In this document: positions 4,036 to 52,084 of the stretch, piece by piece
Layout: every line of letters starts with the position of its first letter
Position numbering within the stretch: position 1 is the first letter of the stretch
Source: Chiloscyllium plagiosum
Lineage: Eukaryota
Length of the DNA stretch: 64,000 nucleotides
Assembly (NCBI RefSeq): GCF_004010195.1
Contig: NC_057719.1
Coordinates: 27,005,323-27,069,322 of the forward strand
Direction of reading: 5' to 3'
The notes under the pieces: generated by a model
What the model was told of the DNA's origin: nothing
The model's database searches: none
The model's input: the letters and a program-made list of their open reading frames with translations, nothing else
Program-made: the position numbers and the translations under genes

Positions 4036-4255
4036 AAAAGTGAGGACTGCAGATGCTGGAAACCAGAGTTTAGATCAGAGTGCTGCTGGAAACGCACAGC
4101 AAGTCAGGCAGCATCCGAGGAACAGGAAAATCGACATATCGGGCAAAAGCCCTTCATCAGTCCTGATGAAGGGCTTTGGCCCGAAATGTCGATTTTCCTG
4201 CTCCTCGGATGCTGCCTGACCGGCTGTGCTTTTCCAGCACCACTCTGATCTAAAC
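4036..4255. mobile_element. Non-autonomous PLE-derived fold-back element, family A
   Basis: ~93-bp inverted arms 4068-4255 centred on cttcatcag-tc-ctgatgaag; same sequence family as the PLE terminal repeats at 19486-19600 and 24040-24160; degenerate TSD 4018-4035 / 4255-4272 (14/18). Confidence 0.85.
4163..4190 (+). ncRNA. Minimal type-I hammerhead ribozyme motif (family A)
   Basis: CUGAUGA-A-GGGC(UUUG)GCCC-GAAA-UG-UC; core residues intact, ACGU palindrome decayed to AUGU. Confidence 0.65.
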
Positions 4256-4639
4256 CCTGCATTTACTATGACCAGTCCACCTAACCTGTACATCTTTGGA
4301 CTGTGGGAGGAAACCCATGCAGACATGGTGAGAATGTGCAAACTCTACATAGAGAGTGGGATTCAACCCGGGTCCCTGGTATTGTGAGGCAGCAGCGCTA
4401 ACTACTGAGTCACCATGCTGCCCTTTGGGGCAGAGGCATCCTCAGAAATCATTATAATAATGATTTGAATCTTCTGAAGTGCAGCAGTCACTGGGCTGTT
4501 GGTACAATCAGGTTCCACTTTACTGGCCAGGTCTTCTGTTCCAAGCACCTTCAGAAATGCTGGGTGCACCAAATCTTTAATTCCTTCCTGGTTCAAAGGA
4601 AGGATCACCACGAGTAGTCAAGATTGGCAGCATTTGCTG

Positions 4640-4822
4640 CCAGCTCAGTTGGCTGGACAGCTGGTTTGCAATGCAGAGTGATGCCAACACCATGGGTTCA
4701 ATTCTGGCACTGGCTGAGGTTAGATGAAGGACTTTTCTCCTCACCTGAGTTATGGTGACACCACTCATCTTTGTCTAACAAGAGAGTAGCCCTATGGTAT
4801 AGTAGGGCTACGATGACTTTAC
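4640..4822 (+). mobile_element. tRNA-derived SINE of a different family
   Basis: A-box-like agctcagttgg and B-box gggttcaattc ~50 nt apart; small hairpin gtagccct...agggctac and a gactttacc end. Confidence 0.5.
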
Positions 4823-5080
4823 CGTTACACTTCTCTCCAATAAAATGTAGTTAACTGTTTTCACCAAAAGCCAATTATATAGTTTTCTTGTGCGATAGAA
4901 AGCGCAGGTTTATTTTCTACTATTCCTGAGAAAAAAATACAACACAATGACAGGAGCAAAGGAACTGTGACCAATACCAAAGGAATATACAGTATAAATC
5001 CTTAAAGAGTCTTTTAGGCTAAATGTTTTAATCTGAGATTACTGTTGTTTAGCTGCTAACTTGAATCATTAACGTATGCA

Positions 5081-5820
5081 GAGTTGGGCTGAAAAGTAGC
5101 AAGTAACATTCGCACCACAAAAATGCCAGGCATTGACCATTTCCAATAAGAGACATCTAACCACTGCCTGTGGTGTTACCGAATCCTCTGCAATCAACAC
5201 TATTGGCATTATCATTCACCAGAAACTCAATTGGATTCGCCACATAAATACAGTGGGTACAACAGCATTCCAGAGGCTAGCTATACTGTGGAGAGTAACT
5301 AACCTCTTGACTCCCCAAAACCTTCTCATCATCTACTTAACACAAGTCAAGAGTGTAATGAAAAAGTCCCCACTTGCCTGGATGGGTAGAGCTCCAACAG
5401 CACTCCAGAAGCTTGCCACCATCCATGACAAAGCAGCCTGCTTGATTGGCACCAAATCCGTCAGCGAGCACTCCCTCCACCATTGATGCTCAGTGGTAGC
5501 AGCGTGTACTATCTACAAGATGCACTGCAGAAATTCACCAAAGATACTTAAACAGCAATTTGCAAACTCATGACCGCTTACATCTGGAATGGCAAGGGTC
5601 ACAGCTGCATGCGAACACCCCACTCACCATCCTGAAATATAACCTTTACTGTTGCTCAGTCCAAATTCTGGAATTCCCTCTCTAATCCCCTCTCATAATG
5701 GGAATGTGGAGTGCACTGATCCAAGAACGCAGCTACTGCTACCTTCTAAAGAGCAACTAGGGACTGGCAGTAAATACTACCCAGCTAGCAACACCCATGT
5801 CCCATGAGTGATTAAAAAGA
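5081..5820 (+). mobile_element. 3' part of a CR1/L2-group LINE (second LINE family)
   Basis: ORF 5133-5486 reads as an RT C-terminus (IGIIIHQKLNWIRHIN...IYLTQVKSVMKKSPLAW); A-rich end gagtgattaaaaaga; related piece at 63820-64000. Confidence 0.8.
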
Positions 5821-6267
5821 AATTACAAATGTTGCAGTTATCCTTTTTAAATTCTATGTCCTGATATTTCTCTAAAATAAATAGTGTCAATGGGTGCTTT
5901 TCTTTCTCAAGAAGCTGAGAGACTGCTTTGTCCAGCAGTTTCTCATTCTGGAGTCAGTAATCCTTCTCCCTTTCCCTGCCACAAGCAGTTCCTTGAAAGA
6001 CAAACATGTTTTGTACATTCCATCTGCTGAAGTTGTTTTTTTCAGGTTTGTTAATTGTAGACAAAGTTCCAGTTCTGACCTGTAAAGATTCCCATAAGGA
6101 GTAAATCAAAATAGGAGATAAGGGACACTTTACTCTTGACTGGGTTGACTGGTTTCGGTACATTTTTGATTTTAAAAAATGTTGGATTAAATATTTTCTT
6201 TGGCTAAACACAAGTTTTATGGAGGGTTTCTCACCACAAGGCCCAGTGAGATTTCTCATCATATACA

Positions 6268-6757
6268 GTCATAGAGATGTACAGCACAGAAACAGACCCT
6301 TTGGTCCAACTCTTCCATGCTGACCAGATATCCTAAATTAATCTAGTCCCATTTGCCAGCACTTGGCCCATACCACTCTAAACCCTTCCTATTCATTCAC
6401 CCATGCAGATGCCTTTTAAATGTTGTAATTGTACCAACCTCCACCACTTCCTCTATACACGCATTGCCCTCTGCTTGAAAAGTTGCTCCTTATGTCCCTT
6501 TTAAATTTTTCCCCTCTGACCCTAAACCTATGCCCTGTAGTTCTGGACTGCCCCAACGTAGGGAAAAGACCTTGTCTATTTGCCCTATTCACACCCCCCA
6601 TGATTTTATAAACCTCTATAAGATTACACCTCAACCTCCGATGCTCCAGGGAAAACAGCCCCAGTTTATTCAGCTTCTCCCTATAGCTCAAAACCTCCAA
6701 CCCTAGCAAATCCTTGTAAATATTTTCTGAACCCTTTCAATCTTCACAACATCCTTC
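6268..6757 (-). mobile_element. 5'-truncated HER1/CR1 LINE
   Basis: ORF 6416-6709 (LSYREKLNKLGLFSLEHRRLR); antisense tail gtcatagag. Confidence 0.9.
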
Positions 6758-7213
6758 ACAACATCAGAGCATGCCAATCTGGTCAAGTTTGCCACCTGGA
6801 TCAGGACAACTTCAGCTGTCTGGAGAAATGCCTAGCAAGAAACTCAATGTTCTTCTCCACTCCACCAGCACAAGAGTCATCTTCTCTCTAATACCTCATG
6901 CTCACTCTAGCTCTGCTGCTGCATCCAACTCCCACCAAAGCTCATGTTCTACCACACTTACTGTTGTCTGTGACATGGAATATTGGCTATGAAAGGAATG
7001 TGTGTAGATACGAGATAATTATATAAGCAAGGCGATTGGAATCCATTATCCATGACCGTACTTTGGTCACTGAACAGTTGGATACAAAAGATCATATGAG
7101 AAGTGAAACACTTCTTAGTTTTTGCAATTGTTTTGCAGGGTCACGCAAATATAGCACTGAAGAAACAAATTTCTGAGAGGGTAATATGACTTTTACATTG
7201 AATCTGCAAATTT

Positions 7214-7232
7214 TGTGTGTGTGTGTGTGTGT
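7214..7232. repeat. (TG)n microsatellite
   Basis: Direct reading. Confidence 0.9.
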
Positions 7233-7325
7233 TCTTTTAATGGTGGCAATCTGTAATTAGCTAAATGCTGATTAAATTGGCAAGCAAATGCTTTTTCTTT
7301 TAAAAGCCTGTTATGGTTCAACAAG

Positions 7326-7573
7326 ATTTGGAGATGCTGGTGTTGGACTGGGGTGTACAAAGTTAAAAATCACACAACACCAGGTTATGGTCCAACAGGT
7401 TTAATTGGAAGCACACTGGCTTTTGGAGCGTCGCTCCTTCATCAGGTGGTAGTGGAGGGCTCAATCCTAACGCACAGAATTTATAGCAAAAATTTACAGT
7501 GTGATGTAACTGAAATTATACATTGAAAAATTGATTGTCTGTTAAGCCTTTCATCTGTTAGAATACAGTGATA
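7326..7573 (-). mobile_element. PLE terminal-repeat fragment, family B, with decayed hammerhead (7417-7445)
   Basis: Matches the end of the GIY-YIG-bearing element at 11165; 10-bp TSD gttcaacaag at 7316-7325 and 7574-7583. Confidence 0.85.
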
Positions 7574-8126
7574 GTTCAACAAGGAGTGGGAAAGACAAAA
7601 ACAATTCTACTCCTCACCTTATCATAACACTTCACATTTCTCTGTATAAATTTCCTGCTAGGGCCTGTTTCCATGCTGTATGACTGTATGACTCTATGTA
7701 TCTGTTTATTCTATACATTTGTCTACGTCTTACTAAAATCTGTTAAAAATTACCTCCTGTGCCATGATTGATAAATTAATGTCGGATCTGGTTTGGGGGT
7801 AAGCAAGGTAAACTTTGGCTTCTGGGCTGGTTTACCCCCATGATCCTAGGCCGAGTTCTTAAATGAGGATGGCTGAGGACAGATCTACTGTCCATTGCTT
7901 CCCAATAGTCAGCTAGTTAAGGCAAATGACAAATAATGATCAGATAGATACCATTCCTACATGAGCTGGATTCTTCAGTCAACAATATTTGCAGGCTATG
8001 TCATTCTGGACCATGTCCTCAAGGTAGTAAGTGGGAAGACTCTGAAAAATCACATAAAGTGACTACTAGATATCCCATGTGGGATAGCTCTGCCATGATC
8101 GTGGTCGGACAACTGTGGCCATTTTA

Positions 8127-8226
8127 AACAAAAATAGAAATTGCTGAAAAAGCTGAACAGATGTTGCAGCGTCTGTGGAGAGAAATCAGAGTTAACATTT
8201 CAGATCGAGTGACCCTTCCTCAGAAG
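8127..8226 (-). mobile_element. PLE-type terminal-repeat fragment, family C, hammerhead motif at 8194-8223
   Basis: Minus strand reads CUGAGGA-A-GGGUC(ACUC)GAUCU-GAAA-UG-UU-AAC; homologous to 27710-27815. Confidence 0.7.
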
Positions 8227-8486
8227 TATGTCCATTTTAATTTGTTTTGAAAACTGGCCTTTTCCTTTTGAAGTTGAGGTGCCCTCTTTTTTACCATCAC
8301 AAAAATGCAGTTCCCACCTCAGGTGGTGCTGTTGCTGATGTATTCATGTGCAGAGGCTTCCCATTGGGATTCTAGCATTGAGAGCCCACCTTGCCATCCT
8401 TAATCAGACAGTGACTCTATTCCCTGCTATTAATTGATGTGGCCCTTTAGAAATCTGCATGGGTGTGTTTGAGATGCTGCCACGCA

Positions 8487-8583
8487 ACAAAGGCTGCGAT
8501 TTCTAAATTTGGAATCCGAAACCCAGTGCTGATGTTAGTCGGCGCTGGGTTTCGGATTCCAAATTAGAAATCACAGCCATTGT
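8487..8583. repeat. Near-perfect ~45-bp inverted repeat with a ~6-nt loop
   Basis: ggctgcgatttctaaatttggaatccgaaacccagtgctga / tcggcgctgggtttcggattccaaattagaaatcacagcc. Confidence 0.9.
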
Positions 8584-10830: not shown

Positions 10831-11164
10831 ACCTCCCGAAACTGAGAGATGTGGTTCTGTAATCCCAAGTTTGAGACTTCCACAACTCCTTTCTAGAAAA
10901 AAGAATGTGACCAAGTATTTCCTGAAACAGAATAAGAAAAATTTGTGACAAACTTCTGGAGCCTAAAGTATTCGAGAAGTTCTGCTGTTTCCGAGTCTGA
11001 ACAAGTATATTCTCCACCTGAGTCAACAGAATGTTAAAGCCACTTTTCTTGTAAGACCTTCAAATTTTTGGCTGAGAACTTTGAGAAAATTAATGGCATA
11101 AATCTAGCCATTTCCTACTTCCAACTGATTTCACACTTCTGAAGTGACAGCCATTAAGTTACTG

Positions 11165-12263
11165 ATTTGAAGATGCTGGTGTTGGACTGGGGTGAACAAA
11201 GTTAAAAATAACGCAACGCCAGGTTATTGTCCAACAGGTTTATTTGGAAGCTCTAGCTTTTGGAACGCTGCTCCTTCATCAAGTGGTTGTGGTGTATAAG
11301 ATCATAAGACACAGAGTTCATAGCAAAAGTTTACAGTGTGCTGTAACTGAAATTATATATTGAAAAATACCTGGATTGTTTGTTACGTCTCTCATCTTTT
11401 AGAATGACCATGTTGGTTTCAATTCTTTCATTTGTAAACCACAGAACTTTTTTAAAGTTGCTTTCTCAAGTGAACTTTAACAATCGATGTCATGTAGGCC
11501 CAGATAATGCATTGAAGGTGTGAGGTGCCCTGTGTGAGACTGTCTGCGCCACAATGTTCAGACTGATTCTAATCTAAAAAATAGATTTTTAGAGTCTTAC
11601 ATGGATTTATGCAGTTTTTGAGAAAAATAAAATGTGATTCTGCAAGTACAAATTCATTCCACAAATTTGTGTGTGTGTGTGCACACATGTGGGTGTGTGT
11701 CTATGGGTAGGAGTTATGAGTTTATGTGAGAGAGTGTGTGTGAGTGTAAAGGGGTATGAGAGGGTGCGTGTGTGCGTATGAGTGCGCAAGTGCATGTGTG
11801 ACCGTATGAGAAAGAGAGCTTGTGTATGAGAGAGGGTCTGCATGAGTATGTGGGTCTAGAAGAGTGTGTGTGTGTGTGTGTGTGTAGTGCAGTGGGATCA
11901 CCTGAAGTGTGACATGAACCCAAGGTCCTAGTTGAGGCCATCCCCATAGGTACCGAACTTGGCTATCAGACTCTGCTCGGCCACTTTGCGTTGTTGCCTG
12001 TCCCAAAGTCCGCCTTGGAGGATGGTCACCCGAAGGTCTGAGGTTGAATGTTCTGGACCGCTGAAATGTTCTCTGACTAGGAGGGAACATTCCTGTCTGT
12101 TGATTGTTGTGCGGTATCCATTCATCTGTTGCTATAGCCTCTGCTCAGTCTCGCCAATGTACCAGGCCTCAGGCCTTATCATTGCCTGCAGTGTATGAGA
12201 TAGACAACGTTGGCTGAGTCGAATGAGTACCTGCCACGTACACGGTGGGAGGTGTTCCCATAG
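11165..12263 (-). mobile_element. 5'-truncated Penelope-like element, family B
   Basis: ORF 11928-12125 (RTTINRQ...VREHFSGPEHSTSDLRVTILQGG...AEQSLIAKFGT..GLN) is a GIY-YIG C-terminus; (CA)n-rich UTR; decayed hammerhead ~11254-11282; TSD ttaagttactg / ttaaattactg at 11154-11164 / 12264-12274. Confidence 0.88.
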
Positions 12264-13623
12264 TTAAATTACTGCATCTGCTTTTTATTCACTGGTGTTA
12301 AGCAATCTGCAGAGTACACAGTTTTTGAATTGCCAAATCTCAGCCACACAAAAGGAAAAAGCTTGCTTCAGGTAAATGTTTCTTTCTAAATATGTCAAGA
12401 CAGACAGTTCTGGACAAGAGAGAGTCTTTTTTTGGTGTTGTTGAATAATAGCAAGATCATCATGGTGTCAAGCACGAATTTGCAGATTCTGTGTTCCGAG
12501 TCCTCAAAGAGCTGATGAGATGAAGAAGTTTGTGCAAAAATACAAAGATATTCCTTCATTGTATGTAAAAGAAAGTCAGTACAGATATAGTTTGTTTGGC
12601 AAACTGTCTGGGAAGAATTTTTTATACATAAAAATTGAAGAATGGGAATCTGAATGGGATTGTATTAATTCCACTTCAACCCTTGATAAAATGCTTGCCT
12701 ACTCTATGTATTTACTGTGGAGTTTTATGTGAACTGTCCATCCCAACCTCATAGGCCCGGAATCCCGCACTGCCCAGTTCTACCTCTTATCCAAAATCCA
12801 CAAACCCGACTGCCCCGGTCGACCTCTCATCTCCGCCTGCTCCAGCCCTACAGAACTTATCTCCTCACAACTCGATACCGTCCTGCCCTCCTTAGTCCAG
12901 GAACTCCCTACATACATTTGGGACACCACCCATACCCTCCACCTCCTCCAGGACTTTGATTTCCCTGCGCCCCAGCACCTCATCTTCACCATGGACATTC
13001 AGTCCCTATACACGTCCAAGTCCTCCATTTCTTCCTCTCTTGCCAACCCAACTGACGCACTCATTCAGCTGGCAGAATTGGCCCTCACCCTCAACAACCC
13101 TCAACAACTTCTCCTTTGAATCCTCCCACTTCCTTCAAAGGGGTAGCCATGGACACCCACATGGGCCCCAGCTATGCATGCCTCTTCATAGGATACATGG
13201 AACAGTTCATCTTCCGCAGCTGCACTGGCACCATTCCCCATCTTTTCCTCCATTACATTGATGACTGTATCGGCGCCACCTCGTGTCCCACGAGGAGGTT
13301 GAACAGTTCATCAACATCACTAACACTTTCCACCCTGACCTTAAGTTCACCTGGACCATCTTGGTGACTTCCCTCCCCTTCCTGGATCTCTCCGTCGCCA
13401 TCTCTGATGAGCGACTCAACATGGACATCTGTTTCAAATCCAATGGCTCCCACAGCTGCCTTGACTACCTCCTCCCACCCACCCCCCCACCACCTGTAAA
13501 AACACGATCACTTACAATTCCTCCGCCTCTGCCATAACTGCTCCTAGGAGGAGCAATTCCAGTCCAGAACATCCCAAATGGCCTCCTATTTCAAGGACCA
13601 CAATTTTCCCTCCCACATGGTAG

Positions 13624-14443
13624 AAGATGGTATTAGTAATAACATTAGCAAATTTGCTGATGATACTAAGCTGGGTGGCAGGGTGAAATGTGATGAGGAT
13701 GTTAGGAGATTACAGGGTGACCTGGACAGGTTAGGTGAGTGGTCAGATGCATGGCAGATGCAGTTTAATGTGGATAAATGTATGGTTATCCACTTTGGTG
13801 GCAAGAACAGGAAGGCAGATTACTACCTAAATGGAATCAATTTAGGTAAAGGGGCAGTACAGAGAGATCTGGGTGTTCTTGTACACCAGTCAATGAAGGT
13901 AAGCATGCAGCTACAGCAGGTAGTGAAGAAGGCTAATAGCATGCTGGCCTTCATAACAAGAGAGATTGAGTATAGAAGCAAAGAGGTTATTCTGCAGCTG
14001 TACAGCGCCCTGGTGAGACCACACCTGGAGTACTGTGTGCAGTTCTGGTCTCCAAATTTGACGAGAGACATTCTGGCTATTGAGGGAGTGCAGCGTAGGT
14101 TCACAAGGTCAATTCCTGGAATGGCGGGGCTACCTTACACTGAAAGACTGGAGCNNNNNNNNNNNNNNNNNNNNNNNNNNNNNNNNNNNNNNNNNNNNNN
14201 NNNNNNNNNNNNNNNNNNNNNNNNNNNNNNNTGCTCTGTCCCAGAGGGCAGTGGAGGCCCAGTCTCTGGGTTCATTTAAGAAAGAGTTGGGTAGAGCTCT
14301 CAAGGATTGTGGAATCAAGGGTTATGGAGATAAGGCAGGAACAGGATACTGATTAAGGATGATCAGCCATGATCATATTGAATGGTGGTGCAGGCTCGAA
14401 GGGCAGAATGGCCTACTCCTGCACCTATTGTCTATTGTCTATT
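13624..14443 (+). mobile_element. 5'-truncated CR1 LINE (different subfamily) nested in the PLE
   Basis: ORF 13578-14279 switches to [11 protein letters not shown]...RPHLEYCVQFWSP; tail (ctattgt)n; PLE sequence resumes at 14444. Confidence 0.92.
14155..14231. other. Assembly gap
   Basis: Run of N. Confidence 1.
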
Positions 14444-16532
14444 GGTTAGCGATGCCCTCCAGTGCATCTCCTCCACTTCCTGCACCTCCACCCTTAACCC
14501 CACCCCTCCAACCACAATTAAAACCCCCCCCCGGTCATCACATTCCACCCCACTAATCTCCGAATACAGCGCATTATGCTCCACCATATCTGCCACTTAT
14601 GATCAGACCCCACCACCAGAGATATATTTCCCTCCACACCCCTATCTGCATTCTGCAGAGACCATTCCCTCCGTGACTCCCTCATTAGGTCCGTGCCTTC
14701 CACCAACCCACCCTTTACTCCCAACACCTTCCCTTGCCGCCACAAAAGATCTAAAACCTGCATCCACACCTTGCCCCTCACCTCTGTCCAAGGCCCAGAG
14801 AATCTTTTCACATCCAGTAGAGGTTTTCCTGCACATCCACTCACCTCATTTACTGTGTCTGTTGCTCTCGATGTGGTCTCCTCTGCACTGGGGAGACAAG
14901 ACGCCAACTTGCAAAACATTTCAGGGAATGACTCTGGGATACATGCACCAAACAACTCCACTGTCCTGTGGCCAATCAATTCAACTCCCCCTCCGACTCC
15001 CCCAAGGACATGCAAGCCCTGGGCCTCCTCTACCGTCAAATCCAAGCCATTCAACACCTGGAGGAAGAGCGCCTCTTCTTCTGTCTTGGGACCCTCCAAC
15101 CACACGGCATTAGTTACCTCATCTCGCGCCCCCCCCCCCCCATCTAATCCCAGATCCAACCGTCCAACTCCGAACCGCTCTCTTGAACTGTTCTACCTGT
15201 CCATCTTCCTTCCCAACTATTTGTTCCACCCTCCTCTCCGACCTATCACTATTGCCCACCCCACCTGCATCTACCTATCTGCAGTCTCCACCACCCCATC
15301 CCTATCCTCCCCACCACCACCCAAAACTAGCCCACACTGGTAAAGTTATTTGACTTCTGCATGGTGCAGGCATTTCCCAGCAATAGATAAAATCAGGCAG
15401 TGACAGATGAGACCCATAAGTGACCATTAACTGACCTCCCATAAAATTTCAGATAGACTGGGTTGGGTCGGGTAGGTGGTGGGAAGGCCCCTCATTGGAT
15501 TTCAGGCACTTCCCACCTTCATACTCTTGGGCATTGACATAGCACCACTGTAAGGTTACCTGTTTGCCAGAATCTCAGGAAGCCAGATCACCTTGTCTGT
15601 GATTTGGCATGGCAGTCCCACTTAGACATATTTGAACACCAGCAGAATTGATCATGCACAGATTTATGAATTGTCAGGTTGGTATCACCCAATCTAAACC
15701 CCTGGATAACTTTGTGGTGTGGAAGATCTTATTTTAGCATCATTCCATTTATGCTCTTTCATACCTCTTCCTTTATGGCTTTGTGGGACATGAATATTCT
15801 TAAATTAGGTGAAACTCATTTTATTTCACTCTCAATTAATTTCCACCTGTTTCTTGTAATGGCTTCTCTGTCCTTATTTGTGACAGTGTGCCTGGTAGAG
15901 CATGTGACTTGCTGGGAGTTGGATGCAGTTGCAGTAAGAGAGAGCTGAAGAAGCAAAGGGAATATGATGACACTTACCCTGGCAGAGTTGAGATCTTGTG
16001 GAATTGCCGGGGGTTTCTCCAGCCACTTGAGGGCTTTGGATCGGTCTAGCTGGATCTGATGTTGAGCCCCATTTGCGGGAACTCGGGAGAGGACATCTCT
16101 CCTGTGTAGCAATCCATCCACCAGGACCTTTAGCCCCTTGTCTGCAAACTAGAGCATCAGGTTTCCCTTATTTGCCTCTTCTCGACAAATATCACAAATC
16201 ATGCAGGGCAGCTATGGACTGCCAGCACTTGATTGGAAGCACAATGGCCTTTTAAGATTCAGCCCAATGTCATTTATATATGTGTCACTGGTGACATATA
16301 ATAAACTATATCTTGTTAATGACAAGGAAGTCTTGTTGTTAACCCCGAAGTGGACTTGCTGTACCACACTCGATCAGACGGGCTTGGTAGTGTACTGCAC
16401 TGAGTGAGGATGGTGGCAGTAACCCTCCATGCACAGCGGTGCAGCGAGTTGGCATGTCCATAACAACATAAATCAGCAATTTGAAAAAGCAGCCATCATC
16501 CAACAGTTTTTAAACAATAATTAAAGCTGAAG

Positions 16533-16742
16533 TAAAAACACAAATAAATGTTGGAACTACTTAACAGGTTTGGCAGCATCTGTGGAGAGAGACAGAGAGA
16601 GATAACATTTCAAGGAATGACCCTCTTCTAGTTTTGACAAGCATCATCAACCTAAAAGGTTAACTCTATTTCTGTATCTACAAGTGCTGCAAAATGTACT
16701 GAGTACTTCCAGCATTTTCTGTTCTTATTTCTGATTTCCACT
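16533..16742. mobile_element. Old degraded family-C-like fold-back element
   Basis: Left arm ...tggcagcatctgtggagaga resembles 8127-8190; right arm gttaactct...tgctgc...ttccagcattttctgtt is its approximate reverse complement. Confidence 0.55.
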
Positions 16743-17411
16743 GTGCTTTGTTCTTGCCTCTCAAAGCTTCCCAGGTTATTACTCTTTGATTTTTGTTCGA
16801 ATGACAGTCATTATGTTGTGACATTAATTCAGTTACTAGTTACTAAAAATAGCTTGTGGAATGTATGTTGCTTGCAAATGAAAATGGTAGAGCTCCTTAA
16901 AAGAGCAAAAACATTAAATGGCACACTGTCTGAATGTATTTTTTTTAATATTAACACATGACACTTCAATTTTGTTCATTGCCTTTGAAAATCAAATAAA
17001 TCCGACAGGATAGAAAATAAATTTAAAAACCTTTGGAATAAAGTAATTCATTGCTATGGTGATATGTTTGCTGAGGTAACTGAACATTAGGTCCCTTTAT
17101 ATCATGGATTATGAGTGTATGAACTTAGCACTTAATTTTTTTTTAAATTAATGAACATCTTTAATAAAATAGCAGAGTGAGGATGTTAGGATATTTATCT
17201 TGAGTTGTAACTTCAGGTGCCAGCTAATTCAGCTGACATTTTCTGCTGGCCTTCACTGATGTGTTGTAATGGTTGAGGCTGAGCTTACTTAAGGGATATA
17301 TTCTGCTTTTTTTTGTGGTGGCTTTCTCTCGGAAGCTGAAGAGACCATCTAAAAATAATGTTCCTGGTCTCAGTGTGATACCAAGGCTCAGCTGCCAGGC
17401 AACGTGTCTAT

Positions 17412-18168
17412 GTCATAGAGTCATACAACACGAAAACAGACCCTTCAGTCCAACTCGTCAATGTCGTCCAGATCCCATTTTATAGCATTTGTTCCATATC
17501 CCTCTAAACCCTTCCTCTTGATATAGCCATAAAAGTGCCTTTTAAATGCTGTAATAATACCTTCCTAAACAACCATAAATGCACCACCCTCTGTGTGAAA
17601 ATGTTACCTCTCGGATTCTTTTTAAATCTTCTCCTCTCAGAGTAAACCTATGCCCTTTAGTTTTGGACTCTCCCACCCTAAGAAAAAGAACCTGGCTACT
17701 TACCCTATCCATGCCCCTCATGATTTTATAAACATCTATAAGGTCACCCCTCAGCCTCTGACGCTCCAGGGAAAATAGCCCCAGCCTATTCAGCTTCTCC
17801 CTATAGCTCAAGCCCTCTAACCCTGGCAACATCCTTATAAATCCTTTCTGAACCCTTTCAAGTTTCACAACATCCTTTCTATAGCAGGCAGACGAGAGCT
17901 GTACGCAGTATTCTAAAAGTGGACTCACCGATGTCCTGTACAACCGCAAAATGATATTCCAACTCCTATACTTAGTGTTCTGACCAATAAAGGCAAGCCT
18001 GCCAAACGCCTTCTTCACCATCTTTTCTACACACATTCCCCTCAGCCCTAATGTTAACTGTATAGGTCCTGCCCTGATTTGCTGTGCCTAAATGCAACAC
18101 CTCACATTTATTGAAATTGAGCTTGATCTGCCAGCCCTCAGCCCATTGGTCCATCTGATCAAGGTCCC
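17412..18168 (-). mobile_element. 5'-truncated HER1/CR1 LINE
   Basis: ORFs 17542-18036 and 17972-18154 (CR1 RT C-terminus); antisense tail gtcatagagtcat. Confidence 0.9.
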
Positions 18169-18219
18169 ATCCTTCTGAAATATTCTCACAATTTAAAATG
18201 CTTCCAACTTCTGCAAGGT

Positions 18220-18602
18220 AGAGTCACAGGTAGATAGGATAGAGAAGAAGGTGTTTGGTATACTTCCCTTTATTGGTCAGAGTATTGAGTATAGGAGTTG
18301 AGAGGTCATGTTGCGGCTGTACAGGACAATGGTTAGGCCACTGTTGGAATATTGAATGTAGTTCTGGTCTCCTTCCTATTGGAATGATGTTGTGAAACTT
18401 GAAAAGGTTCAGAAAAGCTTTACAAGGATGTTGCCAGGGTTGGAGGATATGAACTATAGGGAGATACTGAATTGGTTGGGGCTGTTTTCCCTGGAGCATC
18501 GGAGGCTGAGGGGTGATCTTATAGAGGTTTATAAAATCATGAGGGGCATGGATAGGATAAATAGACAAAGTCTTTTCCCTGGGGTGGGGGAGTCCAGAAC
18601 TC
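18220..18602 (+). mobile_element. CR1 ORF2 fragment in the opposite orientation
   Basis: ORF 18392-18667 (KLEKVQKSFTRMLPGLE...LGLFSLEHRRLRGDLIEVYKIM). Confidence 0.88.
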
Positions 18603-19485: not shown

Positions 19486-19553
19486 ATCAGAGCTGAAAAT
19501 GTGTTGCTGGAAAAGCGCAGCAGGTCAGGCAGCATCCAAGGAACAGGAGAATC

Positions 19554-19581
19554 GACGTTTCGGGCATAAGCCCTTCTTCAG
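19554..19581 (-). ncRNA. Intact minimal type-I hammerhead ribozyme motif (family A)
   Basis: Minus strand CUGAAGA-A-GGGC(UUAU)GCCC-GAAA-CG-UC; palindromic ACGU helix III. Confidence 0.8.
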
Positions 19582-19646
19582 GAATGAAGAAAGTGTGTCC
19601 AGCAGGCTAAGATAAAAGGTAGGGAGGAGGGACTTGGGGGAGGAGC

Positions 19647-20205: not shown

Positions 20206-20689
20206 ACCCAACCTCCACTCCCGGCACCTTCCCCTGCCACCGCAAGAAATGCAAAACTTGCGCCCACACCTCCCCCCTTACTTCCCTCCAAGGCCCCAAG
20301 GGATACTTCCATATCCGTCACAAATTCACCTGCACCTCCACACATATCATTTATTGCATCCGCTGCACCCGATGTGGCCTCCTCTATATTGGGGAGACAG
20401 GCCGCCTACTTGCGGAACGTTTCAGAGAACACCTCTGGGACACCCGGACCAACCAACCCAACCACCCCGTAGCCCAACACTTTAACTCCCCCTCCCACTC
20501 CACCAAGGACATGCAGGTCCTTGGACTCCTCCATCGCCATACCATGGCAACACGACGGTTGGAGGAACAGCGCCTCATCTTCCGCCTGGGAACCCTCCAA
20601 CCACAAGGGATGAACTCAGATTTCTCCAGTTTCCTCATTTCCCCTCCCCCCACCTTCCTTGGTAAAAATACATACAAAATATTAATTTA

Positions 20690-22180: not shown

Positions 22181-23853
22181 ATGGAAGTTTTTCAGACACA
22201 TGAAGGTCTGTGGGTTTTCTATAGCAACAGTCAAAATATGACAACTGGAGTACGTTCTCTGTAGTAAGAGGCATTTTTGATATGGTACAGGTCATTTTCC
22301 CATGTCAGTTTGCTGTGTTGTCTTGCATCTCCATTTTATAATCCAGATTTTTAAACCAAAAAGATAAGGTGGTGAAGAATAAGTATACACAATTTCGCAT
22401 GGGTGGCCTTATTGCTAAATTCTTCTTGCATGAAGATTGGAACATAACTTTTAAGACAATGTAATTTCTTACTTCCCTGTTGCTTTGCTACTGAATGCAC
22501 ACTGTCACAGTTGACAGAATTTCCTCTGGGCATATAATAATGGGCTATCATTGGTGATAAATCTGTAGGTTTACTGCAAGAGACACAAAAGATGGTATTC
22601 ACCAGATGAGAATAATCAACTGAATGTCTGATGGTATTGAAATAGTTCTTTAGGACAGAGATATGACCATTGACACTGTTAACGCTTAGAAAAGTGGTGT
22701 GGCTAAATAAGGATCAGTTGACACAAAGAAATTGGTGTTATTTATCTTCTTTTCCAAGTGCTTGAGCTCTCACAGTTGCATTCAATAGTGCTCCATCATG
22801 GCTGAGAGAAGTTTCCTTCTAAGCTAAGGAAAGTCATTAGGTAGACTTGTCTTGCTATTGATAGGCTCCACTATTGATTGTGATTGGGAACAATTGCTTA
22901 AGTGTCAGCAATGCAAGTAGCCTACCCATCAACTATATGGGAAAAGTGATAACTAAAATAATAGCAATGCTAAAAGACAGTTTAAATCAGTGTGGTCTTG
23001 TGTAATCTGAGAAAGCAAGCATAAATAAATAAATAGCGAGTTTTTAACCTATAATTTAGAATGCTCCCTTGACTGATAATACTAATATGAGAGTACGCCC
23101 ACTCAAGGATAAAGGAGGGAAGTTATGTGTGGAACCAGAGCAAATGGGTAAGATCCTAAATGAGTACTTTACATCAGTATTCACCAAAGAGAGGGACGTG
23201 AGGGATGTTGAGTTTAGGGAAAGGTGTGTAAATATTCTTGGGCAGGTCAGTATAATGATGCAGGAAATGTTGGGTATTTTGAAATGTATTAAGATAGATA
23301 AGTCCCCAGGGCTAGATGGGATCTATCCCAGGATACTGTGGAAAACAAGGAAGGAAATAGCTCCGACCTGAATAGGTATCTTCACATTCACTTTGGTCTC
23401 GGGTGAGGTTCCAGAGGATTGAAGAATGACCAAAGTTGCTCCTTTGTTTAAGAAGGGAAGCAAGAGATAAATCAGGTAATTACAGACTGGTGAATGTGAC
23501 GTCGGTGATGGGGAAGCATTTGGAGAAGCTGCTGAGAGACAGGATTTATTCACATTTGGAAGCAAATAGATTTGTTAGTGATAGGCAGAATAGATTTGTG
23601 CTGGGAAGGTCATGTCTTACCAATTTGAGTTTTTTGTGGAGATGACCAGAATAATTAATGAGGGAAGGGCAATGGATGTTGTCTGCATGGACTTTAGTTA
23701 AGCATTTGGGAAGGTACCTCATGACAGGCTGGTTCAAAAGGTAAAGATTTGGGGAGCTGGCTTGATGGATACAAAACTGACTTGGTCATAGAAGCAGAGA
23801 GGAACAGTGGAAGGGTGCTTTTCGGAATGGAGATCAGTGAATAGTGGTGTTCC

Positions 23854-24161
23854 CCGTGGCTCAACACTTCAACTCCCCCTCCCACTCCACCAAGGACATG
23901 CAGGTCCTTGGACTCCCCCACCCCCACTCCGGCCTATCACCCTCACCTTAACCTCCTTCCACCTATCGCATTTCCAACGCCCCTCCCCCAACTCCCTCCT
24001 CCCTACCTTTTATCTTAGCCCGCTTGGCACACTTTCCTCATTCCTGAAGAAGGGCTCATGCCCAAAATGTCGGTTCTCCTGTTCCTTGGATGCTGCCTGA
24101 CCTTTTCCAGCAACACATTTTCAGCTCTGATCTCCAGCATCAGTAGTCCTCACTTTCTCCT
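23854..24161 (+). mobile_element. Mini PLE insertion, family A, with perfect 14-bp TSD
   Basis: aatagtggtgttcc at 23840-23853 and 24162-24175; starts in GIY-YIG coding DNA, ends in the terminal repeat; decayed hammerhead 24044-24071. Confidence 0.9.
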
Positions 24162-24874
24162 AATAGTGGTGTTCCTAAGGGACCTTTGTGGTTTGTAATA
24201 TATAAATGATCTAAATGAAAAAATCAGTGGTCGGATTTGTAAGTTTGTGGATGACACCAAAACCGGTGGAGTTGTAGATAGTGGGAAAGATTGTCAAGAA
24301 TACTGTGGTATATCGCTAGATCACAGATTTGGGCAGAGAAACAGCAGATAAAGTTTAAGCTGGACAAATGCGAGGTGATGCATTTTGGAAAATCAAGTTC
24401 AGGTACGAATTACACAATAAATGGCAGAACCCTGAGAAACACTGGCATACAGAGGGATCTGGGCATGCAGATTCAGATCGCTGAAAGTGGCAACACAGGT
24501 GGATAAAGTGGTCAAGAAGTTATATAGCACGCTTGCCTTCATCGGCTGGGGCATTGAATATAAAAGTTGACTTGTGTAAAAGTTTAGTTTGGCCACATTT
24601 GGAATATTACATGGTGTTCTACCAGAAGGACATGGATGCTTTGGAGAGGGTGCAGAGAAAGTTTATCAGGATGTTGCCTGGTCTGGAGAGTTTTAGGAAT
24701 GAGGAGAGGTTGGATAAACTTGGATTGTTTTCACTGGAAAGACAGAAGCTGAGGGGTGATCTGATAAAGGTCTATAAAATTGAGAGGCATAGATAGGGTG
24801 GATAGTCAGAGGATTTTTCCCAGGATGGAAAGGTCAACTCTCAGAGGGCAAGATTCAAGGTGAGAGGGGGGAAA

Positions 24875-25220
24875 TTTAAGAGAGAAGTGTGAGGAGCATT
24901 TTTCAGAGGGTGGTGGGTGTCTGGAATGCATTGCGAGTGGAGGTCATGAAGGCAGGCACGTTAGCAACATTTAAAGTGTATCTTGACAGACATATAATTG
25001 GGAGGGGAACAAAGGGATAGAAACTGCATATGGGCAATAAATAGCAAGTTTAAGAGAGAAGTGTGAGGAGCATTTTTCAGAGGGTGGTGGGTGTCTGGAA
25101 TGCATTGCGAGTGGAGGTCATGAAGGCAGGCACGTTAGCAACATTTAAAGTGTATCTTGACAGACATATAATTGGGAGGCGAACAAAGGGATAGAAACTG
25201 CATATGGGCAATAAATAGCA
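24875..25220 (+). repeat. Tandem duplication, 172-bp copies, period 174
   Basis: 24875-25046 vs 25049-25220; one mismatch seen (gggagggga / gggaggcga). Confidence 0.92.
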
Positions 25221-27164: not shown

Positions 27165-27289
27165 TCGAGAATGTTGTGCTGGAAAAGCACTGCAAGTCAG
27201 GCAGCATCTGAAGCTGCCAGACCTGCTGTGCTTTTCCAGCACCACACTCTCGACTCTGATTTCCAGCGTCTGCAGTCCTCACTTTATAC
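27165..27289. mobile_element. Family A fold-back element lacking the central hammerhead segment
   Basis: Arms gtgctggaaaagcac...ggcagc / gctgcc...gtgcttttccagcac; TSD tggggacttccaat / tggggatttccaat at 27151-27164 / 27290-27303. Confidence 0.85.
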
Positions 27290-27712
27290 TGGGGATTTCC
27301 AATGTTTGCTTCATTATAGAAGCTGTTCTGCAGCCCAGTGTATGCTTTGGTCTTATATTGTCTGGGATACCGTATCACACAGATATAAAATAAAATGTAA
27401 ATACAAAACGTGAAACAAAAAATGTGCAAAATAAAACCTTGGTCAAACATTTTCAAGACATTCATTTTCTAGCCAAATTCTATTTCTATTTCTAATTTTT
27501 TTTTCAGTTTTGCAATAGCTAATATCACAACTATATACTCACATACTATATACTAGATGGCTGAAACATTGACCACAACCGTTTTTGAGAAATCAATTTT
27601 AAGTTGGTTTAATAAACCAGGTTACCCTTCCTATTAACTACACCACAGAATAATTTGAAAGTAACTTTTTTAAATCATGCTAAAACACAATATTTACTAT
27701 CCCGTCTGAAAA

Positions 27713-27748
27713 GTTCTGAAGAAGGGTCACTGGACCTGAAACGTTAAC
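27713..27748 (+). ncRNA. Core-intact minimal type-I hammerhead motif (family C) within a ~27710-27815 repeat fragment
   Basis: GUU-CUGAAGA-A-GGGUC(ACUG)GACCU-GAAA-CG-UU-AAC: helix I GUU/AAC, 5-bp helix II with one G-U, palindrome AACGUU. Confidence 0.75.
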
Positions 27749-28407
27749 ACTGATTTCATGGCACAGGTGTTGCCAGACCAGCTGAGATTTTCCAGTAATT
27801 TCTGTTTTTGCTTTTATTTCTAAAGTACCGCGCAGTTTCCCTGGATCATGGATGTCTGGACATTAATTGTGTTTGATGAAAGAAAATTGAGCAAAATAAT
27901 CAATTCTGAAAATTACTGGAATTTTGAGTGCTTTGTGCTTCAGACTGCTATCTGTTCCCAAAGCACTTGGCCTATGCACTGAACAAAACTGATCCAAATT
28001 ATATTGTTATAATACCTTTTCTGAGATGAAATCTAGACTTAATGAAAAAATCAACAAGCAATCAGACTGTTGATCAGCTGGAGGCTAATTTTTATACTGA
28101 GAATCAATACCCCACTCCACCAGATATCTCACGTTGATACTTAAAGAGCTTCTATTTGTATACCTCATGTCTTCCTTAGATTTCCCCCTTTAAGTTGTCA
28201 TTTTGTCTGCTGTCCTTATGTTTTCTCCCTCAGACAAAGTTGAACAAATGTAAATTAAATCAACAATGCAAAAAATTTAAAATTAGAATTTCACTGCTAT
28301 GCAAGATACTGTGGAACCATTTCATACTAGATGTATAAATCCCAGATCTTAGTTGCTGACATTTTTATCAGTTATACTTCTTAACTGAATTGCTTTTGAA
28401 GTAAGTT

Positions 28408-33866: not shown

Positions 33867-34160
<294 letters not shown>

Positions 34161-37462: not shown

Positions 37463-37480
37463 GCTGTCTTTACCATCTTT

Positions 37481-37786
37481 ATTAGATTACTTACAGTGTG
37501 GAAACAGGCCCTTTGGCCCAACAAGTCCACACCGGCCCGCAACCCACCCAGACCCATTCCCCTACATTTACCCTTCACCTAACACTACGGGCAATTTAGC
37601 ATGGCCAATTCACCTAACCTGCACATTTTTGGACTGTGGGAGGAAACCGGAGCACCCGGAGGAAACCCACGCAGACATGGGGAGAATGTGCAAACTCCAC
37701 ACAGACAGTCGCCTGAGGTGGGAAGTGAACCTGGGTCTCTGGCACTGTGAGGCAGCAGTGCTAACCACTATGCCACTGTGCCGCCC
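37481..37786 (-). mobile_element. HE1 V-SINE, full length
   Basis: Head, V-domain and tail all present. Confidence 0.92.
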
Positions 37787-43064: not shown

Positions 43065-43620
43065 AAGCATGACTACTAGATGTTCCAAAGCATTCAAATC
43101 AATGAAGCAGTTTTGAAATATCATGTAGAAAACACAATGAATAACTTCTGCACAGCAAGCTCCCACAAACAGCATTGAGACAATGAGCAGAAAATTTGTT
43201 TTTTGTTGTATTGATTGGGGAATAAGTATTGCCCAGAGCTTCAGGTTCAACTACCCAGCTTTCTATGAAATTGTGCCTTGGGAATTTTTACATCTGTCTG
43301 AAAGACCTTTGTGCTTAACATCTGAACTGAAATCCACAGTCAGGAGAAAGTGAGGGCTGCAGATGCTGGAGATCAGTGTTGAGAGTGTGGTGCTGGAAAA
43401 GCGCAGCAGGTCAGGCAGCATCCGAGGAGCAGGAGAATCGGCATTTCGGGCACAAGCCCTTCATCAGGAATGCTCATTCTTGATGAAGGGCTTATACACG
43501 AAACATCAATTCTCCTGCTCCTTGGATGCTGCCTGACTGGCTGAGCTTTTCCAGCACCATACTCTCGACTGAAGTCCTCAGCCTTCTGACTAGAGTGAGA
43601 GCAGTACCAACTGAGCCATA
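43065..43620 (-). mobile_element. Deu-domain SINE (SacSINE1/AmnSINE1-related) interrupted by a PLE hairpin
   Basis: Minus strand has the Deu motif tgctgtttgtgggagcttgctgtgc (~43150-43175) and tRNA head tggctcagttggtac at ~43605-43619. Confidence 0.75.
43342..43570. mobile_element. Family A PLE-derived fold-back element
   Basis: Long inverted arms centred on cttcatcaggaatg-ct-cattcttgatgaag; both hammerhead copies mutated; possible degenerate TSD actgaaatccacag / actgaagtcctcag. Confidence 0.85.
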
Positions 43621-48710: not shown

Positions 48711-49800
48711 CAACTTTCTGTATTTATGTATAGCACCTTCAGCATAGCAAAATCCTTAAAAATATTAATTTCAAATAAAGACATTTTGGCACTGAATCAC
48801 TGAAGACACCACCAGGACTGATGTCTGAAACCTTGGGCAAAGAGCTGCATGGAAAAGCAAGGCAGGAAAAGCAGAGAGGTTTAAGGAAGGAAATTCAGAT
48901 GATAGAGCCAAAGCAGCTGAAGGTACCACATGCAATAGTGGAGCAATTAAAATCAGGGATGCATAAGAAACCAGAATTAGATGTGCAGGCACATCCTCTG
49001 GAGCTGGAGCTGGTGCAAATTATAAAGATGATGGGAGGGGATACTGGGGACATAGAAGGATTTGAAAACCTGGGCGAGGCTGTTAAACTGAGCATTCATA
49101 GTTCAGGAGCCACAGTGTTGGTTAGTGAGTATAGAGTTAACAGGTATGTCTTTAAATTGGGGAATGATAGATATAGGACTGATGTCAGAGGTAGTTTCTT
49201 TACTCAGAGTAGTAGGGGCATGGAACGCCTTGCCTGCAATAGTAGTAATCTCGCCAACATTAAGGGCCTTTAAATGGTCATTGGATGAAAAAGGAATAGT
49301 GTTGGTTACATGGGCTTCAGATTGGTTTCACAGGTCGGCGCAACATCGAGGGCCGAAGGGGCTATACTGCACTGTAATGTTCCATGTTCTATGGCAAGGT
49401 GAGAGGTTAATGATTCTGTGGATGGAGACGATGTATTGTTCAAAGTTATCTCAGTGTCAAGGAGCACACTCTCTGGTTGGAAGGATTTTGCTTAACTTCT
49501 GACAGTTGCTAGGGATAGAAATGGCCAGACAATGTCATCTGGGTATGGAACAAAGGCAAAGTTTTCAGTCCACCCAATATTTAGTAAGAGGAAACTCTTG
49601 TTCATTTAATTTAGAAGCTGGGCAAGTGGTCTACCAAATGAGAAGGAACCAGTGACATGCTGGCACATTCACGCTGAGCAGATGCAAAAGGGTAACAAAC
49701 AGATGAAAAGTTGAAGGGGGTCATTGATTGATCCGTGAGTGATGCTCGAGGTAATGGAGTGGAGTGATCTGAGAAACCATTACATGACACTTCAAGGTTT
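48711..49800 (-). mobile_element. Degraded L2-like LINE 3' region with a CR1 3' fragment (+, ~49140-49392) inserted
   Basis: Antisense end tgtatttatgtatagcacctt (similar at ~1641-1670); gagaggtttaaggaaggaaattc; the insert encodes RYRTDVRGSFFTQ and ends in a CR1 tail. Confidence 0.65.
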
Positions 49801-50520
49801 GTTAATCAGCAGGTCACGATGCCAAACCAACACTTCTCTAATATACTACATTGACTTTGACCATTTTCTGAATGTTAAATCTTGACAAAACATAGGGGAT
49901 ATTCCCTATGGATGAATAATTTACAAAACATGCAGCAAGTGAGCTGCTCACAAAACTATAAAGGAATGAAGGCATTAGTGCAGGAACTGAAGTGCTATTA
50001 TTTTCTGTATTGCATGAATCCCTGGATGAATTCTAATTTCATCTTGCTTCCAAGTTTATTTTTGGCATTTTGTTATTATACTCGTTTATATTTCTGCTAC
50101 ATTTGTTTCTGGGGACGTTTTGCTGCAGATGACAGAGCAATATCCACCGGTGTAAAATCGAATCATGTGGTGTCATTCAGATCATTGAATCAGTTAGGAT
50201 GTCATTTTACTGTGGCATGGGTTAGAGAGAGAGGACCTGCTGAAAGTGTAATGGGATCTGCAAGAAAGCCTGCAACACAATCTGCTAAAACTATTCAAAG
50301 CCAATGATAGAATGTTATTGGATGGAGGTGTAAGGTTCTGAAAAGCTTAATGCTGCAGAGATGAATTAAGGAAACCCCCATTCCCTCTCCCAACAATATG
50401 GTGATGTCACAGGGCTTTGGATAGAGAACGACTTTGGACCCCAAGACACTAAGACCTAACATCAGGGTCTCCCTCATAGTCCAAGTAACAATGTCGATTA
50501 TAGCAATGTAACTTACACTT

Positions 50521-50725
50521 GATGATTTGGAGATGCTGGTGTTGGATTGGGGTGCACAAAGTTAAAAATCACGCCACACCAGGTTATAGTCCAACAGATT
50601 TAATTGGAAGCACTAGCTTTCGGAACGCTGTTCCTTCATACAACCACCTGATGAAGGAGCAGTGCTCTGAACGCTAGTGCTTTCAATTAAACCTGTTAGA
50701 ATGTAACCTAGTGTTGTGTGATTTT
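50521..50725. mobile_element. Family B PLE-derived fold-back element
   Basis: Inverted arms around ttccttcata / cctgatgaagg; 12-bp TSD taacttacactt at 50509-50520 / 50726-50737; + strand hammerhead 50645-50679 has GAAC in place of GAAA. Confidence 0.88.
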
Positions 50726-52084
50726 TAACTTACACTTAGTTGCTATGATGTGACAACCTACAATGCATTAAAGATAAAAGGCATTTTCTCATTAGACTAT
50801 AGGATAGTTCCCCTCTACCACACCAGATCAAGCAGGTCTTGTAGATCACTACCAGGGAAAGGGATCGTGGCAGCAAATCTATTAGATCTGCTCTTCACTA
50901 GGATTAGCTGTGATGATGATCCACCACACAGCATGGTGGCATCCGTCTGATTATTTAGCCTTAAAGCTAGATAGCAAGCAGTGCGGGTCTGAAGAGCCTT
51001 CAGAAACAGCTATGAGAGGGTTGGTGGTGTGACATATAACAGTTAAAAAACCCAAAATGTTAATTTCTCTGCAGAAGTGAAAACCAGAACAAACTTCTGT
51101 ATGATGGAATCTACAATTGATCAGAAAAAATATTTCAGACCTGCAGGAGACATATTCAAGGCAAGGGTGAGCTAGAAACTTCATGGAGCTAGAACACTAG
51201 TCACGCCTGAATGGTTATAATTTGCTTTGGGTGCTAATAATCCAGGAACAGTCCTGAGTTGACATGTAGCCAGAGGGCAGATGGACATTTGAGGCTCCAT
51301 GGGTTGTTGAAATGCTTGATGGGCAACTGAAAACTCTAAAAACAAATGACACTTGGAAAACTGGATATAAACAAAGTACTGGCAGTTCAGACTGAGTGCT
51401 GCTACCTAGTGACAGAGCACAAGGAGGTATGACTACAGTGGAAAATCAGTGGGACATCAGGGGCCAGAGTGGAAATTTGAAGTAAAGCTACAGACTCAGG
51501 AAATCTTAAAGCCAGAATTAAACCAATAAAGGGGAAATTTAAAAGCCTGAGCAAACAAAGTCTGATGAAATAAGAAAGTTTGGAGTTCATTGAGCCTGCA
51601 GGAAAGGTTGGAAATCTTTTACTTAAAGCTGTGGTTAAAACTGCAGACATTAGGACTTATTCAGGGAAAGAAAAACATTAAAGCAATGGGAATTATTATT
51701 TCACTACAGACAGTGCAAATCATTTCACAAAACGCACGAACAGAACTGGATTTGTCTTATAAAGACCCGGTGAGTAGGTTTCATTCACAACAGCCATTAA
51801 AAGAACAGGAATCATTTATTAAAGCCATAGGCCATGGAATTCATTTGGTACAACCAAAGTGATCAAGAATGTTTATTAAAGTAATAATTAGCAGGATTAA
51901 TTTAAGAAAAGCTGCAAATAAAAATGGGAATAATCCATTTTAGTCAGAATAAGCAGAAACTTTCCTATTTAACTGCAAAATGATAGCACTACACAGTAAC
52001 AGCAGCACTACACAGTAACAGCAAGGCAATACTGCAGAATTAATAACTCTTAAAGCAAGCAGAATAAATAATTATATTTGAATG

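Follow-up and report, generated by a model that had tools for sequence, protein, structure and literature searches.

Minimal hammerhead ribozyme motifs of Penelope-like elements in a KCNH-like gene of Chiloscyllium plagiosum and a likely capped start at the ribozyme edge

Hammerhead motifs in the window

The window, a stretch of 64,000 nt of Chiloscyllium plagiosum contig NC_057719.1 (positions 27,005,323 to 27,069,322 of the forward strand), carries insertions of three families (A, B and C) of Penelope-like elements (PLEs) with minimal hammerhead ribozyme motifs. The host is a KCNH1/KCNH5-like potassium channel gene on the + strand, of which one exon was identified (E ~1e-39). A motif scan of the window found no neighbouring exon beyond 33874-34073, and the copies are therefore taken to be intronic. 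Judged from their sequence, the motifs are genuine, mostly worn minimal type-I hammerheads of PLE end modules, and the RNA of the parent elements likely starts at the edge of the ribozyme. The coordinates are collected in Table 1.

A first-pass annotation of the window had claimed that the hammerhead core recurs, intact or decayed, at about nine loci. All 11 motifs that it named, across nine loci, were confirmed in the window sequence together with the letters given for helix II, the palindrome and helix I; four are full and seven broken. Its minus-strand numbers denote the cleavage nucleotide; here these motifs are named by the position of C3 (4160, 7445, 8223, 11282, 19581 and 43467). A strict descriptor, composed of the core, a helix II of at least 3 bp, a paired 15.2-16.2, UH and a helix I of at least 2 bp, was matched by 4163+, 27716+, 19581- and 8223-, and by nothing in 100 shuffles of the window. 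The palindrome is perfect in 19581- and 27716+ only, with a U-G wobble at this place in 4163+ and 8223-. In the seven broken motifs the core is damaged by G12A (7445-, 11282- and 24044+), by U16.1C (43467- and 7445-), by an altered A14 (4160-) or A15.1 (50648+), or by C3U together with a disrupted helix II (43480+). Family profiles built from genome copies raised the total to 16 copies (8 A, 4 B and 4 C), adding 16627-/16647+, 27211-/27208+ (tail only) and 50639-. A match to an Rfam hammerhead family was not obtained: the covariance models gave 7 weak matches in the window at E<=10, none to a hammerhead family. Approximate target-site duplications (TSDs) of 13-16 bp were found at 6/9 window insertions tested. 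The copies in this intron are truncated insertions, most of them mutated and likely inert.

Table 1. Features of the window; positions count from its first letter (UTR, untranslated region).
Feature	Position	Strand	Details
Family A fold-back insertion	4036..4253	both	Hammerheads 4163-4190 (+; full core, palindrome wobble) and 4160-4133 (-; broken); approximate 13-bp TSD at 4017, 4254
Family B 3' UTR, hammerhead and tail	7326..7567	-	Hammerhead 7445-7417 (G12A, U16.1C); 16-bp TSD at 7310, 7568
Signals of family B copy 7326..7567		-	TATAAA 7485-7480; inferred start 7453; poly(A) signal ATTAAA 7405-7400
Family C short copy	8128..8227	-	5' end ~4 nt ahead of C3; hammerhead 8223-8194 with full core and wobbles; TSD of 14 bp at 8114, 8227
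Family B	11164..12262	-	Decayed GIY-YIG coding remnant (~11894-12262), 3' UTR, broken hammerhead 11282-11254, tail
Decayed family C fold-back pair	16547..16723	both	Absent from the first-pass list
Young family A (A1) 3' end	19486..19646	-	Hammerhead 19581-19554 intact; the genome has further copies that are identical or nearly so
GIY-YIG endonuclease frame, CxxxCxxC-type linker	20206..20657	+	Presumably the 5' part of insertion 19486-19646, inverted and lying beyond a 559-N gap
Family A: GIY-YIG piece, 3' UTR, hammerhead, tail	23854..24159	+	Hammerhead 24044-24071 (G12A); 16-bp TSD at 23838, 24160
Signals of family A copy 23854..24159		+	TTTTATCT 24008-24015 in 3' UTR; initiator-like TCATTCC 24038-24044
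Family A tail-only fold-back pair	27170..27248	both	Without hammerhead
Family C short copy	27712..27812	+	5' end 4 nt ahead of C3; hammerhead 27716-27745 intact; same sense as host gene
Internal exon, KCNH1/KCNH5-like potassium channel gene (host; context)	33874..34073	+	E ~1e-39
Family A fold-back insertion	43340..43567	both	Hammerheads 43467-43440 (-) and 43480-43507 (+), both broken; 14-bp TSD at 43326, 43568
Family B fold-back insertion	50524..50725	both	Hammerhead 50648-50676 (+; broken); 5'-clipped core on - from 50639; 15-bp TSD at 50509, 50726
Sense poly(A) signal ATTAAA of insertion 50524..50725	50686-50691	+	

Abundance, conservation and parent elements

A background sample of sixty 10-kb regions at round positions (584,989 nt) contained 34 strict motifs, compared to 0 in 10 shuffles, and 177 profile matches (109 A, 36 C and 32 B), compared to 0 in the reversed control. 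The copy density was ~253 per Mb in the window and ~303 per Mb in the sample, so the window is ordinary for this genome. Thus, the motifs do lie scattered through an ion-channel gene, as had been noted, and there is nothing special about this location. Extrapolation gives roughly 1 million copies genome-wide, provided that the sample is representative. One 30-letter A1 motif had 30,936 exact matches in the genome; a degenerate intact-core pattern, with pairing left unchecked, had 138,990 (control, 7), corresponding to ~1.4e5 intact cores in 3.56 Gb. One of the 34 strict matches of the sample (L124:5697-5735, +) belongs to a further, fourth family, in which helix II is longer and helix I different.

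It is extremely unlikely that the intronic copies are co-opted ribozymes regulating the KCNH pre-mRNA. The full-core motifs 4163+ and 27716+ are both sense within the same inferred intron, but they are separated by 23.5 kb, seven of the 11 named motifs are broken and the density equals the genome background. Moreover, 27716+ is at most 91% identical to its nearest relatives, as would be an old neutral copy.

Pair counts were made on the copies of the background sample without requiring pairing; they were not taken from the MAFFT alignment, where family B was shifted by one column and one row clipped. The 10.1-11.1 pair is GC in 46/56 A and 14/18 B copies. At 15.2-16.2, CG was found in 30/56 A copies, 24 more carrying CpG-decay forms, and GC in 17/18 B copies. 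The extra base after A9, G10.1-C11.1 and the palindromic 15.2-16.2, by which the minimal hammerheads of PLEs are recognized, are all present, in line with the proposed class. Families A and C, which have homologous tails, differ by compensatory swaps at 2.1-1.1 and at 10.4-11.4 (both C-G to U-A). Within A, 10.2-11.2 is A-U in 4/56 and G-C in 47/56 copies without any mixed pair, and 2.3-1.3 is U-A in 8 and G-C in 4. The claim of covarying stems is thereby borne out, the swaps being few ancestral events rather than many independent ones. Family B could be aligned with A and C in the core only.

Across 109 randomly sampled A copies, variation was seen in N7 and loop II, and the non-CpG core letters were 94-99% constant. 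CpG positions including G12 fell to 72-87%, and decay was also evident at 15.2/16.2. The constant core together with the CpG decay fits selection in master elements, followed by neutral decay. The expectation that the core is more conserved than its flanks held only in part, since a tail block of family A is as invariant (94-99%) as the non-CpG core. This block, located ~+19 to +50 after the cut site and common to A and C, is a candidate protein-binding or reverse transcriptase (RT) start element.

When monomers were folded, only helix II formed stably and reliably. The z-scores of folding lacked significance, and the dimer hammerhead did not emerge from co-folding. Helix I of subfamily A1 contains a U-U mismatch. 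A second palindrome, UCGA, spans the cut site at 19550-19556 and in other A1 copies and was the preferred intermolecular duplex in co-folding; this duplex could be a competitor of the active dimer. The earlier proposal that the ribozymes at these loci are functional is not supported: seven of 11 motifs are broken, the fold-back pairs lie on opposite strands, the monomers fold helix II only, and RNA reads (below) showed no pile of ends at the cut site.

The link of families A and B to GIY-YIG coding DNA was confirmed. A family A hammerhead lies ~185 nt 3' of a GIY-YIG frame, in sense, in 7/11 loci outside the window (L152-L162), and likewise in many of L163-L178. The window GIY-YIG frame of this family scored E=5.2e-5, above the curated cut-off; the 561-aa family A frame of L169 contains RVT_1 (E=1.4e-8) and GIY-YIG (E=5e-4, below the cut-off). 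In family B, a decayed GIY-YIG remnant of its own precedes the hammerhead, within the window as well as in L062, L071, L078 and L081. Family C had been assigned to PLEs by analogy; a decayed GIY-YIG frame has now been found upstream in sense in L050, L060 and L038 (~250, 250 and 380 nt). One open reading frame (ORF) that holds RT and C-terminal GIY-YIG was present in family A only, B and C showing decayed GIY-YIG frames. All three have a CxxxCxxC-type linker (B in L081 and L073, C in L050). In published work, a CX2-5CxxC linker before the endonuclease is given for Neptune and is common to Nematis and Naiad (PMC8557442). Based on this motif, the parent elements are likely Neptune-type PLEs.

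The 30-40-bp tail, the adjacent inverted truncated copy and the TSD were all observed, as in endonuclease-positive PLEs. The 28 GIY-YIG loci contained no partial tandem pLTR-ORF-pLTR unit (pLTR, pseudo-long terminal repeat), and the window no tandem array with complete hammerheads per unit. Assembly gaps are very frequent inside long PLE insertions (L163-L178, L180-L208), and full-length elements are thus probably under-assembled. Within the window, a decayed PLE with RT and GIY-YIG pieces (12733-15340, +) is broken up by a CR1-like LINE (long interspersed nuclear element) fragment at ~13630-14400. Family profiles detected no hammerhead at the 3' end of this PLE.

Copy ends, RNA reads and the start site

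Copy ends were numbered relative to the cut site, C3 being -28 in A1. In all three families the common sequence stops near +60 or +97. Since the shared sequence runs past the cut site, motif-bearing copies were made from uncut RNA. The 5' ends were tested in one subfamily (A1), using GIY-YIG-linked references, tail-anchored copies and a TSD check (n = 89). We relied on this test, as a broader analysis may misplace subfamilies lacking a long reference. Thirty-three copies started in -33..-26, only 1 in -50..-41, 5 in -40..-34 and 19 in -25..-4. The others started in -3..+3 (5), beyond (3), in -199..-51 (17) or farther upstream (6); a few starts adjoin assembly gaps. The density was 4.1 per nt in -33..-26 compared to ~0.11 per nt in -199..-41, and the cut site was not a favoured start (5/89). 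A TSD of at least 7 nt flanked 27/33 copies starting at -33..-26, the TSDs of short A1 copies measuring 13-17 bp.

Position -32 is the A of the initiator-like motif TCATTCC in family A; family C has TCAGTT in the same register. In three A subfamilies (T/C)TTATCT lies at TATA distance, with the start A ~32 nt after it, and in family B TATAAA lies 30-32 nt upstream of an A at C3-8. Short copies are without the upstream motif. The base before the -32 A, where it is not the templated C, is G in 6,150/10,079 genome matches (26% expected). At the control start -27, G was counted by eye in 10/100 among the matches listed. The 29 unique A1 loci had G in 23, as an extra base (8), within the TSD (6), within the fold-back arm (5) or without a TSD (4). 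Among copies not selected by their junction, G was present in 8/11 A1 and 4/5 B, and subfamily A2 had G in 51/100 among the matches listed, again by eye. An untemplated 5' G has been ascribed to the cap in L1 and SVA insertions (PMC3287187), and the G excess before the -32 A is what copying of a cap would lead one to expect. The simplest reading of these junctions, and a likely one, is a capped polymerase II start at the ribozyme edge; stalling is its rival.

According to this rival, the 5' ends cluster because the folded ribozyme makes RT stall or switch template, or because RT jumps to the 5' end of the cut product. Starts indeed rise at ~+3, where RT would first meet helix I, and remain elevated as far as -36. 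The A1 cut product begins with GAUUC, and a jump via the shared AUUC would also produce G-ATTC; about half of the copies (47/100 in family A) are fold-backs. However, the peak coincides with the distal 5' border of the structure and starts fall off steeply upstream of it (1/89 in -50..-41), TATA-position and initiator-like motifs occur at the expected spacing, and the weak monomer structure disfavours stalling. A G excess is also seen in A2, where the cut product is GAAUC (weak in unique loci), and in B at C3-8. We consider stalling or jumping rather unlikely.

It is still less probable that the short copies form an independent non-autonomous family, similar to SINEs (short interspersed nuclear elements) or retrozymes, amplified from their own short or circular RNA. 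The short units are uniform, TSD-flanked and very numerous, and PLE-derived retrozymes have been reported in vertebrates including one chondrichthyan (bioRxiv 10.64898/2026.07.22.740005). L272 holds one 206-nt same-strand repeat with two identical cores. Yet short and GIY-YIG-linked copies have the same subfamily sequence, the TATA-position motif is absent from the short ones, no tandem array occurs in the window and same-strand neighbours closer than 1 kb are rare and irregular (16 pairs across all loci). We therefore judge such a family very unlikely. The two cores in L272 (-) are family-B-like, in the same orientation and 206 nt apart, and are a candidate natural dimer or retrozyme-like repeat.

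RNA was examined in run X19, a set of poly(A) single-cell reads of which ~2% was covered. The reads were mostly 90-99% alike, so the run is probably from a relative. One A copy collected 2,634 reads from both strands, 92% of which continued into unlike flanks; run X20 gave 0 matches to it. On one B copy (L062), 3,005 reads were obtained, with poly(A) ends at +29 (338) and +32 (427), positions 1568 and 1571, 12-15 nt after ATTAAA. The depth showed no drop at the cut site, and G12 was retained in 948/1,113 reads covering that place. Thus, sense polyadenylated family B RNA carries an uncut hammerhead, whether its source is the element or a host gene. This RNA is not the template of the genomic copies, because those end farther out (+60, +97). 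No pile of read ends at the cut site was found on the A or the B copy in X19, a library type poorly suited to this. A depth step near the family B start was rejected as start-site evidence, as it is accounted for by read length. Loose ends listed for the genome-sized run X15 included no family B poly(A) end. A poly(A) signal was found in 27/32 random B copies (ATTAAA 14, AATAAA 13), and AATAAA in 11/109 A copies. Inserted in sense, the family B signal could end host transcripts, for example at the candidate at 50686. By eye, the family tails hold splice-acceptor-like sequence; the read joints listed for the A and B copies included no GT..AG ends.

Overall, the best explanation, to which we assign a probability of about 0.7, is that these are PLE hammerheads located at the start of a capped RNA, which is copied into mini-copies without being cut. 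A polymerase II promoter in the pLTR, consisting of the TATA-position motif and an initiator-like A located 4 nt (A, C) or 8 nt (B) before C3, would start a capped RNA at the 5' edge of the ribozyme. The RT of the element would prime internally at +60 or +97 and read through the uncut hammerhead up to the cap, yielding insertions of ~90-135 bp, frequently bearing an additional G or fold-back arm. For longer copies, priming would have taken place at the downstream pLTR of a read-through or tandem RNA. Cutting by the ribozyme would require that two copies pair via the helix III palindrome, or the help of protein. Selection would act on the ribozyme in master elements only, and CpG decay after insertion would hit G12 and the palindrome.

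Several points weigh against this explanation. Starts remain raised (0.6-1.0 per nt) over the whole ribozyme, as stalling would also give. Of the 23 A1 G junctions, 11 are readable as TSD or fold-back arm; family C has no G excess (2/7), and A2 has G in 8/23 unique loci and in only 2/12 single-arm loci examined in full. Besides the probable origin of X19 from a relative, the clade placement rests on the linker motif and not on an RT tree, and 30 N-terminal loci, the majority interrupted by assembly gaps, did not yield the full pLTR-ORF-pLTR unit.

The part of the ribozyme in PLEs is termed unclear (PMC8557442). At somewhat less than even odds, the pLTR would be a compact LTR-like control unit in which the ribozyme serves as a decapping switch for the mRNA of the element itself and the mini-copies, tens of thousands in the genome, record internal priming run off the cap. 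Equally tentative is the layout of this unit, with a TATA-position element, a capped start at the first bases of the hammerhead, the ribozyme confined to the initial 32-37 nt of the RNA and, in family B, a working poly(A) signal directly behind the ribozyme; PLEs of other animals may be organized alike. Should the RNA begin at the ribozyme, cutting would strip the cap together with ~32-37 nt, which makes the hammerhead role directly testable.

The hammerhead fold might instead be kept for a non-catalytic role, as a protein-binding or promoter-proximal signal without cleavage in vivo. The inserted copies stem from uncut RNA, the polyadenylated B reads keep G12 and cross the cut site, A1 has the U-U mismatch, and in vitro cleavage was dispensable for insertion, with no RNA ends at the site (Frangieh 2024, PMC11167929). 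Against this, the catalytic core letters are kept across non-alignable families although N7, loop II and stems vary, and related motifs cleave weakly as dimers (PMC4209133) or with protein (PMC11167929). A non-catalytic role appears unlikely.

Other repeats of the window include a 175-bp unit directly duplicated at 24872-25220 (99% identical copies) and open reading frames at 57394-60822, which from the ORF list alone we presume to resemble Gypsy-type LTR retrotransposon pol. Further abundant repeats, for example at 821-1026, 6263-6757, 17410-18601 and 37474-37786, are presumably CR1-like LINE 3' fragments and SINE-like units.

Comparison with known systems

Minimal hammerheads in the pLTRs of metazoan PLEs were described in 2014 (Cervera and de la Pena, PMC4209133). 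Common to these and to the window motifs are the CUGANGA/GAAA/UH core, the extra base after A9, G10.1-C11.1, the palindromic 15.2-16.2 and a short helix I, as well as several families per genome, mostly single truncated copies and opposite-strand pairs. The AGCU palindrome of family B is present in shrimp and turtle rows of the supplement. Compared to the 138,990 intact cores counted here, ~4,000 are given for coelacanth and ~9,000 for Xenopus, methods differing. The alignment rows and supplement terms searched contained no cartilaginous fish, and the portions covered no description of a start site at the ribozyme edge. In the supplement alignment, inspected by eye and with no control, several rows show an initiator-like UCA(G/U/C)U immediately ahead of the core (Xenopus 1, Ciona, Schistosoma 2, Nasonia, Ixodes 2, Lottia 2 and Camponotus). 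Our literature search, which did not extend to Lunse 2017 (RNA Biol; it may list cartilaginous fish), Repbase and Dfam, found no shark description, and nothing relevant on a start at the ribozyme edge.

The Poseidon PLE of Anolis likewise has two 3' ends past the hammerhead, in the tail, which were mapped to internal RT start sites; insertion from uncut RNA, absence of RNA ends at the cut site and protein-assisted hammerhead cleavage were also reported (Frangieh 2024, PMC11167929). In contrast to Poseidon, the elements of the shark window have the Neptune-type Cys linker, and the Anolis ORF begins inside the ribozyme, a junction not found here in N-terminal loci. As proposed here, Penelope of D. 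virilis (Schostak 2008, PMC2377424) and Pen2a of Adineta (PMC3846280) have a promoter with an initiator in the pLTR, with TATA in Adineta. An adjacent inverted truncated copy and TSD-flanked truncated copies are further likenesses; partial tandems are also known from these systems. In D. virilis, transcription starts 46 nt ahead of an intron that runs up to helix I (PMC2377424), whereas the start inferred here lies 4-8 nt before C3, at helix I or beside it.

Non-LTR retrozymes are likewise high-copy type-I hammerheads related to PLE pLTRs (PMC7229834; bioRxiv 10.64898/2026.07.22.740005). The latter source, by a section title, gives up to 120,000 in axolotl and has one chondrichthyan with both retrozymes and PLEs. 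Retrozymes are tandem units, whereas the window copies occur scattered, singly or as fold-backs, and have minimal cores and PLE tails. The ribozyme type is thus known, and its very dense set in this genome is apparently undescribed.

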